IMG/VR virus record: IMGVR_UViG_3300016665_000058
Location: 1 to 34,626 of that record
Reading direction: 5' to 3' (one strand)
DNA length: 34,626 nucleotides
Source: a virus
This document shows, piece by piece, positions 13,800-32,832 of this stretch. The first letter of the stretch is position 1. The number at the start of each line of letters is the position of its first letter. The notes below the pieces were generated by a model. The model ran no database searches and was not told the DNA's origin. It saw only the letters and a list, made by a program, of their open reading frames with translations. Both the position numbers and the translations under genes were made by a program.

Positions 13800-15266
13800 T
13801 CACCATTTGTTCTTGACTGGCAATGGCACGAAGCTGGCTGGCTTGGTGGCCGGTAGCTTCTGCACCAGGTTGATCGCGTCGAACATAGGGTCGAGCTGGT
13901 CGTCGTGAGCGCCAGCAGGGAAGGCCGCAACCTCGGCCAGGAAGTCGGAAAGCCAAGGCGCGTCCTGCGGAAGCACCACGTTGCCGGACTCGATGAACGG
14001 GGCCGCGTCGTGTGCCCGGCTGATCTTGTCCTTGTTGCGTTGCACCGGCACAACTGGGATGCCTTCGCGCCGCAGCGTCTGGATCAGGCCAGTGCCGGAC
14101 ACCTTGTCCTCGACGTACATCCCTCGCAGGGTCGCGGCCTGGTACGGTGGCCGCATGTCGTTGAGGTGCTTGAGCCAGAAGGCACGAGCGTTCACCAGCA
14201 GTTCTGGAGCCTCCCACTTGCCGCGCACCTGGTCGAGCTTGACCGCCTGTCCAACGGTCGAACGTGCCCAGCACTGCAGCACCGACCAATCGTTGTGGTC
14301 GGCTGTCTTCTGGGCCGTGTCCACGGTGATGAAGCGGAACTCGAGCTGCGGGACGCTGGCCCAATACTTGAACCACTCGGTGTTGATGATGCCGCCACCA
14401 CGGGGCGCAGGCCGCTGCTGGAGCTGTCCGGCCGTGCCGTAGGGGCCGAGGGTTTTCTCCAGCTCGGACACTTGGGCTTCACCAAAGCGCTCGGGGAACA
14501 TCAGCTCGCCTTCCTTGGTGCGCGGGTCAGTCCAGCCGATGCTGGTGGTGCAGCGGTGCTCAGGCTCGAAGCGCATCGGGATGCACAGGTGCACGTAAGG
14601 CAAGCCCATGTCCTTGATGACGCCGGAGATGTCCTTCTCGTTCAGGCGCTGCATGATGACCACGATGGCCGACTTGTCGGAGTTGACGCGGGTCGGCAGC
14701 GTCTCGGTGAAAGCAATCTTGGCTGCCTCCAGCTTGGCCTGGCTGTTGGCGTTGTCTGCGCTGATCGGGTCGTCCAGGATGACGCGGTCGCCACGCACGC
14801 CGGTCATGCTGGTGAAGGCTCTGGCCTGGCGCACGCCTTTGCGGGTATTCCCGAACTCGCGCTTGCCGTCCAGGTCAGCCAGCAGCTCGATCGGCCAGAG
14901 CTTCTGGAACCAGTCGGACTTGATCAGGTCGCGGCAGCGTCGGCTGTCCCGGATGGCAAGCTGCTCTTCGTGGGCTGTGCCGACAAAGCGCATCTCAGGC
15001 ATATCCCGAGGCCCCCACTCCCAGGCTGGCCAGATCACGCCGGTCAGCAGGGATTTCATGGAGCCGGGTGGCACGTTCATCAGCAGGCGGTTGATCTCGC
15101 CATTGGTCACGGCCTCGAGGTGCAGGCAGATGGCGTCCAGCGCCCATCCCCACTTCAGATCGGCAGCCGGTTCAAGCACGCGCCAGGCACGCTTGGCAAA
15201 CTCGGCCAGGCTTCTCCTGCACAGCTCGCGCTCAATGGCCAGCAGGTCAGCTTCGGTCAGTAACAT
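13800..15266 (-). CDS. terL: Terminase large subunit, 488 aa
   Basis: The ATG at 15266 (MLLTEADLLAIE) overlaps the terS end by 20 nt. It has a Walker-A-like NVPPGSMKS, a Walker-B-like DRVILDDP, and a C-terminal nuclease region with ITVDTA and HDDQLD. Confidence 0.88.
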   Translation of the reverse strand: MLLTEADLLAIERELCRRSLAEFAKRAWRVLEPAADLKWGWALDAICLHLEAVTNGEINRLLMNVPPGSMKSLLTGVIWPAWEWGPRDMPEMRFVGTAHEEQLAIRDSRRCRDLIKSDWFQKLWPIELLADLDGKREFGNTRKGVRQARAFTSMTGVRGDRVILDDPISADNANSQAKLEAAKIAFTETLPTRVNSDKSAIVVIMQRLNEKDISGVIKDMGLPYVHLCIPMRFEPEHRCTTSIGWTDPRTKEGELMFPERFGEAQVSELEKTLGPYGTAGQLQQRPAPRGGGIINTEWFKYWASVPQLEFRFITVDTAQKTADHNDWSVLQCWARSTVGQAVKLDQVRGKWEAPELLVNARAFWLKHLNDMRPPYQAATLRGMYVEDKVSGTGLIQTLRREGIPVVPVQRNKDKISRAHDAAPFIESGNVVLPQDAPWLSDFLAEVAAFPAGAHDDQLDPMFDAINLVQKLPATKPASFVPLPVKNKW

Positions 15267-15753
15267 CGTCTTTGGCCGCGATGATCTGCGCCAGCACGTC
15301 TGTGGATAACTTGGAGGCGTCGATGGTCTGCACTTGCAGCGGGTTTTCCTTGTCGCCTGCCAGCTCCAGCCGGTCGCCGTACTTTTTCGGGGCCAGCTTG
15401 GAAAGCAGCCATTTTCGGCTGTCCACTTGCAGTTTTCGCTGTTGGATGGCCTGCCAGTCGCGTTTTCCGTCTCCAGTCTCAGGGACTTCGCTGTCAGCCA
15501 GCTCCAGCACCTCATTGGCCATGCGCTCGATCAAGTCTTCCCTCGCGTGCGCGTAGTCTTCCGCAAGTTTCGCGTCAGCATCCACCCATCGATTGAACGT
15601 GCTTTGCGGAACTCCGGCTGCTTGGCAAGCCTTGAAAGCGCTCAGGCCGTCTCTCATCCCTTGCAGGACAGCTTGGCAGATGGCGTCTTTGTCTCGCTCA
15701 GGCTTTGCTGGTTTCGCTGTTTTTTTTGGATTTTCAGTGCGTTTTGTTGCCAT
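15247..15753 (-). CDS. terS: Terminase small subunit, 168 aa
   Basis: It has an N-terminal HTH (GLSAFKACQAAGVPQSTFNRW) and the typical DSRKWLLSKLAPKKYGDR block. It lies directly upstream of terL. Confidence 0.85.
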   Translation of the reverse strand: MATKRTENPKKTAKPAKPERDKDAICQAVLQGMRDGLSAFKACQAAGVPQSTFNRWVDADAKLAEDYAHAREDLIERMANEVLELADSEVPETGDGKRDWQAIQQRKLQVDSRKWLLSKLAPKKYGDRLELAGDKENPLQVQTIDASKLSTDVLAQIIAAKDDVTDRS

Positions 15754-16485
15754 AGTGCTCCCCTGATGTCAAAACTCGCATTGCTCGTGCAGCCACTGCT
15801 GGAACCCATCCATTGCCAGTGGCTTTGAGTCCGTCCATCCCTCTGGCCACATCATCAGGATTTCTTGGCATCGAGGCGTAGTCATCCGCTGATAGAGTCG
15901 CATCAACTGCTCTTGCAAATTGCCGTCTGCGTGATTGACGCGGATCAACTTCAACGGGTTTCGGAAAGTCCAAGCCTTCCAAGACTGCGCTGTCGGTGTA
16001 AGCAACCAAGTAAAACCGTGCTCTGTGGTGCGCTGCTCCAATGGTGGACGCGTAAAACACTCCCCATCTTGCATCAAACCCCATTCCGGCCAAGTCTGCG
16101 AGAACTCTTCCAAGCCCCCGAGAAGTGAGCATTGGCGAGTTTTCCACAAGAACGAGTTTTGGTCGAGCTTCACGAATGATTCTGGCCATCTCCACCCAAA
16201 GTCCCGATCTTGCGCCATCAAGTCCGGCCCCCCCCCGCACTGGCTGATGTCTTGGCATGGGAATCCACCAGTGACGACGTCGACAGTTCCTGCCCATGCT
16301 TTTCCGTTGAATGTTCGGACGTCATTCCAGATTGGGAATTGTTCAATGACTCCATCGCGCATTCTGTCAAGCATGATTTTGCGAGCTCCGGCATCAATTT
16401 CAACAGCGCAGACGGTGCGCCATCCAAGCAGCTTTCCTGCCAAGACGCTGCCACCCCCTCCTGCAAATAATGCCAGCTCATTCAT
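15734..16485 (-). CDS. dcm: DNA (cytosine-5)-methyltransferase interrupted by a frameshift in a G9 run (about 250 aa if repaired)
   Basis: The frame from ATG 16485 gives LFAGGGG (motif I) and GGFPCQDIS (motif IV). The -1 frame from the G run gives RSGLW, VLVENSPML (VI), HHRARFYLVAY (VIII) and GNGWVPAVA (X), and it ends 20 nt inside terS. Confidence 0.85.
16228..16236 (-). repeat. Homopolymer G9 on the coding strand (C9 on the + strand) at the frame switch of the methyltransferase
   Basis: I counted nine consecutive C at 16228-16236. On the minus strand this reads cag tgc ggg ggg ggg ccg. Confidence 0.95.
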
Positions 16486-16494
16486 TGTCACCTT

Positions 16495-17001
16495 TCAAAT
16501 GTGCTTCCAAGTCTTGCGCGTGATCACTTGCGCGATGGTCATCAAGCTGACGCCATACTCTGTGGCCAGCTTGGCGTAACTGATCTGCGGCGATCTGCCA
16601 CGAATCTCAAGCACATCCTTTTCGGTCAATTTTGCGCACCAAATTTGCGTTCCTTTTGGCTGCGTTCCATGCCCAATCTTGTGTGAATTGTTCTCGATTG
16701 GCGTAGCGTAGGCCAAATTTGTCAGGCGGTTGTTTGTCTGGTCTCCATCCAAGTGCGCCACCTCCATGCCATCAGGGCAGTCGCCACAGAAAGCCTGCAT
16801 CACAGCCCGGTGAACTTTCCATTGCTTGACCTTGCCATCCTTGCGAGCGTTGAACACCATGCGGCCACCATGATCAATTGATGGGCTGAGCTGGCGCATT
16901 GCTCTTGTGCCTTTGCCGGGGCTGATACGCCGCACGTTCCCATGGTCTGATACTTCATAGGCCTCAAATCCGGGTAATGGTTTCCACTGTTCTGCATCCA
17001 T
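16495..17001 (-). CDS. Free-standing HNH homing endonuclease (NUMOD4-like N-terminus, HNH_3 core, C-terminal HTH), 168 aa
   Basis: The sequence shows MDAEQWKPLPGFEAYEVSDHGNVRR, VHRAVMQAF, VAHLDGDQTNNRLTNL, ENN and a C-terminal YGVSLMTIAQVITRKTWKHI. The region is lower in GC than its flanks. The ORF-track start at 17037 is a TTG. Confidence 0.85.
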   Translation of the reverse strand: MDAEQWKPLPGFEAYEVSDHGNVRRISPGKGTRAMRQLSPSIDHGGRMVFNARKDGKVKQWKVHRAVMQAFCGDCPDGMEVAHLDGDQTNNRLTNLAYATPIENNSHKIGHGTQPKGTQIWCAKLTEKDVLEIRGRSPQISYAKLATEYGVSLMTIAQVITRKTWKHI

Positions 17002-17007
17002 GCAACC

Positions 17008-17037
17008 ATTATAAAGCATTTGCGCAACTATTTTCAA
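17008..17037 (-). promoter_or_regulatory. Near-consensus sigma70-type promoter TTGAAA-18-TATAAT ending 6 nt before the HNH ATG (leaderless transcript predicted)
   Basis: The minus strand reads ccaTTGAAAatagttgcgcaaatgcttTATAATggttgcATGgat. The predicted start coincides with the A of the ATG at 17001. Confidence 0.4.
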
Positions 17038-31236: not shown

Positions 31237-32832
31237 TCAGTTGTTCAGCAAATACACAATTGAATCCAACGTCGCTGCGTATGCGTCTGTAATGTCTGTG
31301 TTGCATGTGATGACTCCTGCACTACTAATTTGCAGCCAAATAGAAAGGCCGTTGCTTGTTACAGCCGGGAGAATGACTGTTCTGTTTGGACGGTATTCAG
31401 CAGAAAGCGTGGCAAGCGTTGCACCGATACCAATGGTGTTTCCAGTTGTCGCCGTGATTTGACCAGCCAAGCGTACCGTTTTGTCTGACATGAGATACGC
31501 TTTCGGTGCTTGCGGCGCCGAAAGACCGACCGCATTTGCTCCAAATGACGTAATCGCACCAGATTTTCTGTAATCAATATAACCATTATTTTGAACAGAA
31601 AATATTTCAGAAGAATTTGGGTCTTCAACGATGATGGCTTTGTTGGTAGCAACAGATTGCGGTCCCGGTTTGATGTACAAAGCCGTTGATGGGGTTTGAA
31701 CTTGCGTCTGGTCAATATAGACGCCAACTTCGCAGTTATAAAGTTGGATGCCGAATTGCCACGGAGGAATCCAGTTCCCACCAGCACCAGTAGGTGACTG
31801 ATTTAAGTATGGATACCGCAATACCTTGTATCCAACTTCAGGCTTATATGTCCCTTGCCCTGTGAGAACGACTCCAAGACCTTTTCCATCTGCGGCACTG
31901 TTTTCCAAATCCAGTTCCATACAATTCGCATTGCCAAGGAAACCAGAGCGCATTGCACTAACAATGTTGATGCCGCCGAGTGCAAAATCTGCACCATTGA
32001 CACCGACAATTTCAAAAAAACCAGCGTTTGCGTTGCCTCTGAAAGAAGTGCCTGGAATGGAGTCAACCGACAATGTTGCAGAACCAAATGGATATTGGCC
32101 AATCGCTCCTGGGTCTTCAACTGCTTGATTTGGAGCAGAAAACAGATAGGTGTAGTTGTTTAAGTTGTAGCCATTGACAACAGACGCGCCAAAAGATGGT
32201 GTTGAATAGTACTGACCAGGAACAAACGTGCCAACATAAGTAACGTCGGAGCCTGCCCAAATGTTAATGGGGGTGTTTGAATTTACTTGGCTAGCAAACG
32301 CAGATGAATCAAGAATTTTGTATGTTCCATTGGGTACATACACCCCAACACCAGAAGAAAGAGCCGCCGAATAAGCATTAACAAATGCAGAAGTCGAATC
32401 GTTTACGCCTGATGGATCAGCGCCATAATCAGTGACGCTAATGAATTCTCTTAGTTTATTTTGAACATTTGTTTGAATTGCGCCAGCACCGGAAGCTGTA
32501 TATGAGACATCAACAGCACTGATAATATTGCCATATCGCTCAGTGGCAGTCGGTGCGCTGTAGACAACGCTGCCGTTCTTGTTCATCACTCTGATGCTGT
32601 AGTCGCTGTTGACGTACAGGCGCGCAGGCGTTCCGCTGTTGGACGGATAACCAGCCAGCGTGCGAATAGGCTGGGCAGCAGGCAACGTCAGCGCAGCGTC
32701 CCAATAGACGTTGATCGGGTTGGTCTGCGGGTCAAGATTGACCGTGCCGATCCAGACGTAGCCGTCCTCAAGAGGCTGGCCATCAATGTCCGTGAAGATC
32801 GGATAGGTGGGTTGAATGCTGAGTGCAGACAT
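31237..32832 (-). CDS. Tailspike / receptor-binding protein with pectate-lyase-like beta-helix, 531 aa
   Basis: AAGGAG precedes the ATG at 32832. The N-terminal YPIFTDIDGQPLEDGYVWIG...NVYWDAALTLPAAQPIRT is a conserved adaptor-type module. It is followed by VTDYGADPSGVNDSTSAFVNAY...VYVPNGTYKI. GC content drops sharply after about codon 100. Confidence 0.8.
   Translation of the reverse strand: MSALSIQPTYPIFTDIDGQPLEDGYVWIGTVNLDPQTNPINVYWDAALTLPAAQPIRTLAGYPSNSGTPARLYVNSDYSIRVMNKNGSVVYSAPTATERYGNIISAVDVSYTASGAGAIQTNVQNKLREFISVTDYGADPSGVNDSTSAFVNAYSAALSSGVGVYVPNGTYKILDSSAFASQVNSNTPINIWAGSDVTYVGTFVPGQYYSTPSFGASVVNGYNLNNYTYLFSAPNQAVEDPGAIGQYPFGSATLSVDSIPGTSFRGNANAGFFEIVGVNGADFALGGINIVSAMRSGFLGNANCMELDLENSAADGKGLGVVLTGQGTYKPEVGYKVLRYPYLNQSPTGAGGNWIPPWQFGIQLYNCEVGVYIDQTQVQTPSTALYIKPGPQSVATNKAIIVEDPNSSEIFSVQNNGYIDYRKSGAITSFGANAVGLSAPQAPKAYLMSDKTVRLAGQITATTGNTIGIGATLATLSAEYRPNRTVILPAVTSNGLSIWLQISSAGVITCNTDITDAYAATLDSIVYLLNN

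Follow-up and report, generated by a model that had tools for sequence, protein, structure and literature searches.

The stretch of viral DNA analysed here, positions 1 to 34,626 of the IMG/VR record IMGVR_UViG_3300016665_000058 (34,626 bases, hereafter the window), carries on its minus strand a C5-cytosine methyltransferase gene that is split by a run of nine G. The comparative data presented below point, with a probability of roughly 0.6, to a hypermutable ON/OFF poly-G contingency tract in a dual-coding gene. The tract would set the reading frame of the catalytic polypeptide (alpha) and, at the same time, that of a second product (beta) read from an overlapping open reading frame (ORF) in the +1 frame, beta being the putative small domain of the enzyme. 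On this reading the allele in the window is put out of frame by its G9 tract, while the gene is intact in all other respects and under purifying selection.

By sequence count the run consists of exactly nine G (C9 on the plus strand). It is the sole homopolymer of at least nine bases in the window, whose G+C content is 58%; the runners-up are T8 at 15720-15727 and A7 at 32014-32020. From ATG 16485, with a Shine-Dalgarno-like AAGG 5 nucleotides (nt) upstream, the frame reads MNELALFAGGGG (motif I) ... GGFPCQDISQCGGG (motif IV) and then enters the tract. In this allele the C-terminal part of alpha lies in the -1 frame relative to the N-terminal part (ORF 15734..16297), reads AGLDGARSGLW...VLVENSPML...HHRARFYLVAY...GNGWVPAVAARA and could be made only from the internal ATG 16297. 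The frame of ATG 16485 thus has motifs I and IV of a C5-methyltransferase, and motifs VI and VIII are outside the polypeptide that carries them; they rejoin motifs I-IV only when the tract is repaired to G10 or G7. These repairs yield proteins of 250 and 249 amino acids (aa) respectively, while G8 and G11 lead to early stops. In the Pfam search, PF00145 aligned to residues 4-170 of the repaired protein (E 7.9e-30), and to residues 4-84 only of the unrepaired ORF. The repaired protein also matched M.HhaI (E 9e-14, residues 5-181), and this alignment places the tri-glycine encoded by the tract in the catalytic loop that follows the PCQ cysteine. An earlier note, made from the sequence alone, had described a nine-G run splitting a C5-methyltransferase, with motifs I and IV on one side and motifs VI, VIII and an X-like motif in the -1 frame on the other, a product of about 250 aa restored by G10 or G7, and a stop 20 nt inside terS as at other coupled genes. 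Each of these statements was borne out by the sequence count, the translations and the Pfam search; the alpha stop is at 15734, and the terS/terL overlap is also 20 nt.

A protein search returned thousands of intact homologues of about 242 aa, the best of which is 89% identical and reads ...CQDISQCGGGAGLDGERSGLW. This closest homologue (P0001) has G10, reading CGGGAGLDGERSGLW, and sits on a contig of 33 kb that, judging by its name, may be a circular long-read assembly. An IMG/VR relative (L010/L015) has G10 and 99% aa identity to the repaired window protein, and L011 has G9 with flanks identical to those of L010/L015. Two Logan contigs from different SRA runs (L003 and L004) have G8, the runs with G8 being SRR31616010 and SRR31616081. 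HiFi data underlie ERZ25068665, where the tract is G10. Three tract lengths, G8 (L003, L004), G9 (window, L011) and G10 (L010/L015), are therefore found on identical flanks, and four more same-flank sets differ in tract length only. The exact 238-aa product of the window's G9 allele is also present on an independent Logan assembly of SRR6423794 and in JGI/ENA, and 238-aa products of the G9 type comprised 3+3+11 distinct member sequences. Codon differences within this group are nearly all synonymous: 11 synonymous and 2 non-synonymous between the window (G9) and L010 (G10), 21 and 3 between the window and L003 (G8), and 1 and 1 between L003 and L011 (G9). Out-of-frame alleles have thus diverged from each other under purifying selection, suggesting that the frameshifts are recent or reversible.

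IMG/VR was then scanned as a whole, using a pattern anchored solely downstream of the tract and so blind to the upstream frame. The 108 stretches recovered gave 90 unique poly-G alleles once de-duplicated. Seventy-two of the 90 are in frame, with G10, or with G11 if the preceding codon ends in G; this set includes one G12 and one G13 (four glycines). The 18 others (20%) are out of frame, 11 being one G short and 7 one G long. The full data set contains 21 frameshifted alleles spread over 13 clusters at 90% identity, and all 21 have a pure-G loop. The C-terminal half is complete in 20 of them and a recognisable N-terminal half is present in 19, the two lacking it being cut at the contig end. 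The lengths of the halves are normal (medians 82 and ~165 aa), with the exception of L094. None of 98 alleles with other loops was frameshifted, a control biased by the fact that these loci were gathered by in-frame patterns or ranked tblastn. The comparison was dropped because slippage and sequencing error both depend on homopolymers, so that it does not discriminate between them. One lineage has G9 (one G short) in all of its five IMG/VR contigs, which come from five metagenomes (L094, L120, L127, L155 and L190). The downstream half of L094 is shortened to 89 aa, that of L120 having 211 aa. This lineage appears to be stably OFF and possibly decaying.

Similar tracts recur across the phage family: no fewer than 20 divergent lineages have a pure G10 or G11 run at this position of the catalytic loop. 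The poly-G genes are 39-100% identical to each other at the aa level (median 61%) and form 20 clusters at 80% identity. In a neighbour-joining tree they interleave with genes having an AGKGAG loop, with about 31 parsimony changes between the two states. Elsewhere in these genes glycine is encoded by GGG in 18% and by GGA in 51% of cases; with GGG at 18%, three such codons in a row are expected at 0.6%. Pure G was found in ~70% of the tri-glycine alleles against this 0.6%, and third positions are randomised in the conserved Gly, Pro and Ala codons that flank the tract. The locus therefore shows what is looked for in phase-variable genes, namely a homopolymer of at least seven bases that lies inside an ORF and sets its frame, length polymorphism between near-identical genes whose ORF is otherwise intact, and a tract kept beyond coding need. 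The excess of pure-G codons, the length polymorphism and the intactness of OFF alleles together indicate that the tract behaves like a maintained hypermutable contingency tract. Polymorphism on identical backgrounds, with both +1 and -1 variants, in intact ORFs under selection and with a tract kept pure against codon usage, is what comparative data typically show for a simple-sequence contingency locus driven by slipped-strand mispairing.

Interrupted derivatives of the run were also found (GGGGTGGGT, GGGGGGGGT/C and GGAGGGGGG), and such an interruption would lock the frame. Those that differ by one substitution from their poly-G background read GGGGTGGGT, GGGGGGGGT and GGGGGGGGC. The interrupted alleles (L019, 3220-3300; L198, L199, L211, L213, L215, L201 and L209) look like "locked" derivatives, and L019 differs from the G10 locus L007 by 7 synonymous and 1 non-synonymous codons. 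A search of 185,579 species-representative genomes gave only two matches to the tract, a Methylococcus metagenome-assembled genome and Pseudomonas sp. Irchel s3b2. Cultured phages gave no match; their related genes (at most 54% aa identity) carry GKG-type loops. The carriers of poly-G are essentially all uncultured.

The tract lies at the same time in a second conserved reading frame. The frame that starts at ATG 16485 stays open for 152 codons past the tract, down to 15769. A Pfam search of this post-tract part gave no match, and it proved to be the C-terminal part of a +1-frame ORF (beta) conserved in the family. The earlier note had taken it as a frame that loses all methyltransferase character, a description that does not hold for a family-conserved ORF. 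Its idea of a switch, a phase-variable orphan dcm that it favoured over a slippage site or a sequencing error, gains support from the comparative data as far as a length-variable tract is concerned, but it missed the dual coding of the gene, in which a slip affects two products. Among 176 complete family genes, the +1 frame is open over ~97% of the C-terminal half in 94-98%, while the other alternative frame meets a stop after a median of 2 codons. In 94% of the 159 in-frame genes the +1 ORF spans 90% or more of the gene length, compared to 1.1-1.4% after synonymous shuffling; its N-terminal part is open in 96% (23% expected) and its C-terminal part in 93% (2.3% expected). Conservation of the +1 frame, evaluated on 19 representatives below 65% identity, was 0.489 against 0.379 +/- 0.004 for synonymous resampling (z = 25.7).

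Beta starts at a second ATG, 4 nt after that of alpha (ATGAATGAG; 16481 in the window). The Asn codon at position 2 is AAT in 156 of 156 genes, and AAT accounts for only 45% of Asn codons elsewhere; this invariance indicates that the second ATG is preserved. The conserved start at +4 and the open N-terminal +1 frame led us to drop the possibility that poly-G acts as a Shine-Dalgarno sequence for internal initiation of beta. Conserved blocks of beta are SWKT.QCSLL, EFSETWP.WG.M.DGEC, LLPTPTA.D and LNP.WVEWLMGWP.GWT.LKPL, and its sequence includes the peptide LNPQWVEWFMGWPIGWTELRPLAMDK. In the alpha frame, diversity at third codon positions is 2-3.5 times that at first positions over motifs I-IV and 1.1-1.6 times over motifs VI-VIII; the ratio falls to 0.6-0.8 over the NPxWVEWLMGWPxGWT segment of beta and returns to 1.55 at motif X. 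The low value in the EWLMGWP.GWT segment indicates that the +1 frame is the dominant coding constraint there. Gene callers often choose the beta ORF, and a beta profile matches 16,369 cluster representatives at E <=1e-3. Beta also underlies annotated C5-methyltransferase genes of cultured phages, always in the +1 frame: Salmonella phage S9-5 (L225, 1501-2217), Vibrio phage 1.291.O and relatives, Pseudomonas phages phPA-G and PS-1, Klebsiella phage BUCT711, Ralstonia phage phiRSP, Acinetobacter phage ABMM1, Porphyromonas and Stenotrophomonas phages, Sulfitobacter phage phiGT1, Bacteroides phage BF1-TP2 and Mycobacterium phage SG4 (L229, under gp64). In the window it extends over 15769-16481 on the minus strand. 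On these grounds of sequence conservation, beta is well supported as an ORF under selection; its translation is presumed.

One locus, L115 (IMGVR_UViG_3300014960_000001), has the +1 C-terminal module (PTPT...LNPTWVEWLMGWPQGWTDLKPL) in the methyltransferase frame behind motif VIII. Its motif-X end is lost, and the frame change adjoins a G-rich stretch, ERAGGGN. L115 could mark another site prone to slippage, or else a natural fusion. It was left unused as an example of a "single-chain" enzyme, being probably a second frameshift at another G-rich spot.

Since the tract lies in both ORFs, where it encodes glycines in the alpha and in the beta frame (the catalytic-loop tri-glycine in the former and a tri-glycine in the latter), one slip disrupts both products. 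Its length fixes the frame relation between N- and C-terminal halves for alpha and beta alike. With G10, alpha and beta are both intact, and beta is a single 237-aa ORF in G10 relatives. With G9, as in the window, the first ATG leads to a 238-aa chimera of the N-terminal part of alpha and the C-terminal part of beta (alphaN-betaC, 15769..16485), the junction of which reads ...CGGGPDLMAQDR, while the second ATG leads to a stop after 87 aa (16218..16481). The 240-aa ORF listed at 15769..16491 begins at an upstream GTG, and the product from the ATG has 238 aa. With G8 or G11, alpha is truncated soon past the tract and beta becomes the reciprocal betaN-alphaC chimera, of which P0117 is an example. 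Coordinates are given in Table 1.

Table 1. Features of the methyltransferase locus and adjacent genes in the window.
Feature	Position	Strand	Description
G9 homopolymer	16228..16236	-	seen in the sequence; G8-G13 at the same site in relatives
alpha N-part	16237..16485	-	ATG 16485; motif I LFAGGGG, motif IV GGFPCQD with the catalytic Cys
alpha C-part	15734..16227	-	motif VI ENSP, motif VIII HHRARFY, motif-X-like GNGWVPAVAARA
beta N-part	16218..16481	-	+1-frame ORF from the second ATG 16481, MSWHYLQ...; 87 aa in G9
beta C-part	15769..16227	-	reads …SFLWKTRQCSLLGGLEEFSQTWPEWGLMQDGEC…LLTPTAQSWKAW…NHADGNLQEQL…TPRCQEILMMWPEGWTDSKPLAMDGFQQWL
terS, small terminase (Sf6-type)	15247..15753	-	translationally coupled; PF20901 on the homologous gene
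HNH endonuclease (NUMOD4 + HNH_3)	16495..17037	-	directly upstream; stop 9 nt before the alpha ATG

The upstream HNH endonuclease is homing-endonuclease-like, and close relatives share the gene order HNH, methyltransferase, terS, terL. Overlaps of 20 nt are present at both the methyltransferase/terS (15734-15753) and the terS/terL (15247-15266) junctions, and at each of them the downstream ATG falls within the last codons of the upstream gene. The beta stop at 15769 instead lies 16 nt before the terS ATG. The T8 run mentioned above (plus strand) corresponds to A8 in codons 8-11 of terS, at the N-terminus of the protein; at this site L003, a close relative, carries A7 plus a substitution, and both are in frame.

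The AlphaFold model of alpha gives confident predictions for residues 1-165 and for a helix at 229-241, and the predicted local distance difference test score (pLDDT) is 31-42 for residues 166-222. The corresponding linker of the alpha C-part, about 57 aa without a confident fold, precedes the motif-X-like segment, in which GNGWVP resembles motif X by eye only. Foldseek aligns alpha over ~170-190 columns, in the large domain only, of the ~325-residue M.HaeIII and M.HhaI, and the Pfam and TIGR alignments end at about residue 170-197. The low pLDDT of residues 166-222 and the restriction of matches to the large domain indicate that alpha is without a folded target-recognition domain (TRD) or a recognisable motif IX. 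The annotated product would thus be a large catalytic domain plus a motif-X-like helix only, and beta, by analogy with M.EcoHK31I, may supply the missing small (target-recognition) domain. As in that enzyme, a conserved second ORF was found in another frame within the alpha gene; TPRCQEILMMWPEGWTD and the consensus LNPxWVEWLMGWPxGWT resemble motif IX, by eye only. Beta also matches phrog_1008, labelled "DNA methyltransferase" (E 1.7e-16).

A more general proposal, which we put forward tentatively and at somewhat less than even odds, is that small phage C5-methyltransferases are two-subunit enzymes whose alpha and beta polypeptides start at ATGs 4 nt apart, with the poly-G tract switching both. 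One ribosome-binding site would serve the two ATGs, frame 0 giving the alpha catalytic core and frame +1 a beta of about 237 aa for target recognition. This proposal would cover cultured Salmonella, Vibrio, Pseudomonas, Klebsiella, Acinetobacter and Mycobacterium phages. A poly-G tract would have come to occupy, in many uncultured lineages, the only place where both frames tolerate glycines. A single slip would then turn the whole enzyme off or create chimeras, and so lead to mixed populations of methylated and unmethylated virions.

The switch itself would operate by slipped-strand mispairing during DNA replication, which would add or remove G. Lengths of 3n+1 (G7, G10, G13) would be in frame, as would G11 where the preceding codon ends in G, and all other lengths would break the frame. 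As the tract is kept pure G across many lineages, its likeliest role is that of a reversible ON/OFF switch of phage DNA methylation. By analogy with other phages, methylation would shield a genome from methylation-sensitive restriction, and genomes that lack it would evade methylation-dependent (type IV) systems. The rate of switching and this selective trade-off are both presumed.

Several observations weigh against the combination of a fast switch and a small-domain role for beta. The lineage with G9 in all five contigs fits a stable OFF state as well as fast switching. Read-level error is possible in the window, as is a mixed population in which G9 merely wins the consensus. Searches of beta against Pfam, NCBIfam and PDB profiles, PDB methyltransferases included, gave no match, and its assignment to a known family failed accordingly. 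A construct joining alpha residues 1-170, the C-terminal part of beta and the motif-X segment of alpha gains no PF00145 or TIGR00675 score. The AlphaFold model of beta is poor (pLDDT 43), with a disordered N-terminal stretch of 100 aa and values of 50-59 in the C-terminal half. Finally, phrog_1008 may itself consist of such alternative-frame calls.

Among the other explanations of the G9 allele, a plain homopolymer miscount would mean that the phage in the sample truly has G10, with an intact gene, and that G9 is an artefact of sequencing or assembly. Long G/C homopolymers are classic sites of indel errors, the majority of relatives are in frame (72/90), and outside the tract the gene shows no damage and evolves under purifying selection, as expected of a functional gene. 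Yet the same G9 product was obtained by an independent assembler (Logan, SRR6423794) and is found in JGI/ENA. Out-of-frame alleles occur in 13 distinct 90% clusters and are reproduced, G8 in two runs and G9 in five contigs, and the Sanger-sequenced Bordetella phages discussed below vary likewise in their methylase tract. That the same off-frame lengths turn up again in independent samples and assemblers speaks for the reality of such alleles, and we regard a miscount as unlikely. The tract might also be a non-adaptive mutational hotspot, a liability whose OFF alleles are dead ends in a decaying pseudogene. Orphan phage methyltransferases are accessory genes, the five-sample G9 lineage includes an allele (L094) with a shortened C-part that suggests further decay, and the interrupted derivatives described above are expected if selection sometimes removes the tract. 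What makes this account decidedly improbable is that almost every one of the 21 OFF alleles is intact outside the tract, that two OFF alleles differ by 21 synonymous against 3 non-synonymous codons, and that pure-G coding is found in at least 20 lineages against an expectation of 0.6%, next to synonymous sites that are randomised. A pure liability should have gained synonymous interruptions.

It is more improbable still that the frameshift is decoded, either by a programmed -1 slip on G_GGG_GGG, as the earlier note had also suggested, whose product would contain the junction peptide CGGGAGLDGAR, or by transcriptional slippage on the C9 template. G_GGG_GGG does formally fit the X_XXY_YYZ pattern in the zero frame, and RNA polymerase slippage, established for A/T runs, is possible on long homopolymers. 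However, the shift needed by relatives is none (G10/G11), -1 (11 alleles) or +1 (7 alleles), so that no single programmed event is conserved. No stable structure was detected 3' of the tract: the 111 nt from the tract gave a z of +0.87, and 160 of 200 shuffles fold as well. Programmed -1 ribosomal frameshifting was rejected on these two grounds; low-level stochastic slippage might still make the OFF state leaky.

If the tract is a true switch, environmental phages, a large group of them, hedge their bets on the methylation of their own DNA, which bears on phages that face hosts with methylation-sensitive plus methylation-dependent restriction. The very recent concept of phage contingency loci would also reach beyond T-even laboratory phages, to phages not in culture and to C5 methylation. 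Annotation would be affected too: about one fifth of these genes would be labelled as pseudogenes or as split ORFs. The conserved second reading frame is the most interesting result, and dual coding, if it holds, outweighs the switch in importance. More than 16,000 clusters of "hypothetical proteins" would then be the +1 frame of methyltransferase genes, and an entire family of "minimal" phage C5-methyltransferases would consist of alpha/beta enzymes with complete gene overlap. Few same-strand overlaps in phages would be longer or more widespread.

Bacterial phasevarions are controlled by phase-variable mod/hsd methyltransferases of Haemophilus, Neisseria and Helicobacter and by cj0031 of Campylobacter. 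They share with the tract described here the repeat-driven ON/OFF switching of a DNA methyltransferase, but are host type I/III/IIG systems that rewire host gene expression. The window gene, in contrast, encodes an orphan phage C5 enzyme that probably acts on the phage genome, and it implies no regulon.

Homopolymer switches are also known in phages, and the earlier note's statement that no phage-borne equivalent was known is outdated. In the deposited genomes of Bordetella phages, the tract in the methylase gene bpm is G8 in BPP-1 (L194, 29922-29929), G9 in BIP-1 (L226), G10 in BMP-1 (L227) and G8 in vB_BbrP_003 (L228). In BPP-1 it is the only homopolymer of at least eight bases in the genome, and G8 is in frame. 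Variation of the bpm poly-G is attributed to Liu et al. 2004 in the citing passages of PMC4791379 and bioRxiv 10.1101/2025.10.21.683753. Like the window gene, bpm is a phage-borne orphan DNA methyltransferase with a poly-G inside the ORF, the length of which varies among siblings. It differs in being a DPPY-type N6-adenine/N4 methylase rather than a C5 enzyme and in belonging to a single phage group, with no family-wide recurrence reported and no overlapping second ORF known. In phage T2, an A9 tract in agt undergoes reversible frameshifts at a rate ~1000-fold above that of point-mutation reversion, and switching trades escape from the modification-dependent TgvAB against protection from McrA/BC (Gomez, Barrick & Waters, bioRxiv 10.1101/2025.10.21.683753). 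As in our proposal, a homopolymer in a phage DNA-modification gene is linked to a trade-off between two restriction systems. The T2 gene, however, encodes a glucosyltransferase acting on hydroxymethylcytosine, has an A tract and was demonstrated by experiment in a cultured phage, whereas the system in the window involves a C5-methyltransferase, a G tract and uncultured carriers, with comparative evidence alone. Campylobacter Fletchervirus phages have hypermutable G7-G11 tracts in ORFs that give rise to phenotypically mixed progeny, as reported by Sorensen et al. 2021 (Cell Rep 35:109214). These tracts differ from ours in that they lie in receptor-binding proteins and control host range rather than DNA modification.

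With respect to architecture, M.EcoHK31I and M.AquI are C5-methyltransferases made of two polypeptides. In M.EcoHK31I, alpha has motifs I-VIII, motif X as well as the TRD, and beta, which has motif IX, is encoded wholly inside the alpha gene in another reading frame (Lee, Kam & Shaw 1995; PMC2836561, PMC3404938). The alpha of the window resembles that of M.EcoHK31I in having motifs I, IV, VI and VIII plus a helix similar to motif X, without a recognisable motif IX. The beta subunits differ: that of M.EcoHK31I is 61 aa long with motif IX only, the TRD being kept by alpha, while that of the window is ~237 aa, coextensive with alpha, starts 4 nt after the alpha ATG and is known from genes alone. 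In a literature search of incomplete coverage, no account was met of phage C5-methyltransferase genes overlapped by a +1 frame over their whole length. Compared with all these systems, three things appear to be new: the tract's occurrence in the C5 family, its recurrence and upkeep at a single loop in many uncultured lineages, and the dual coding of the gene around it.

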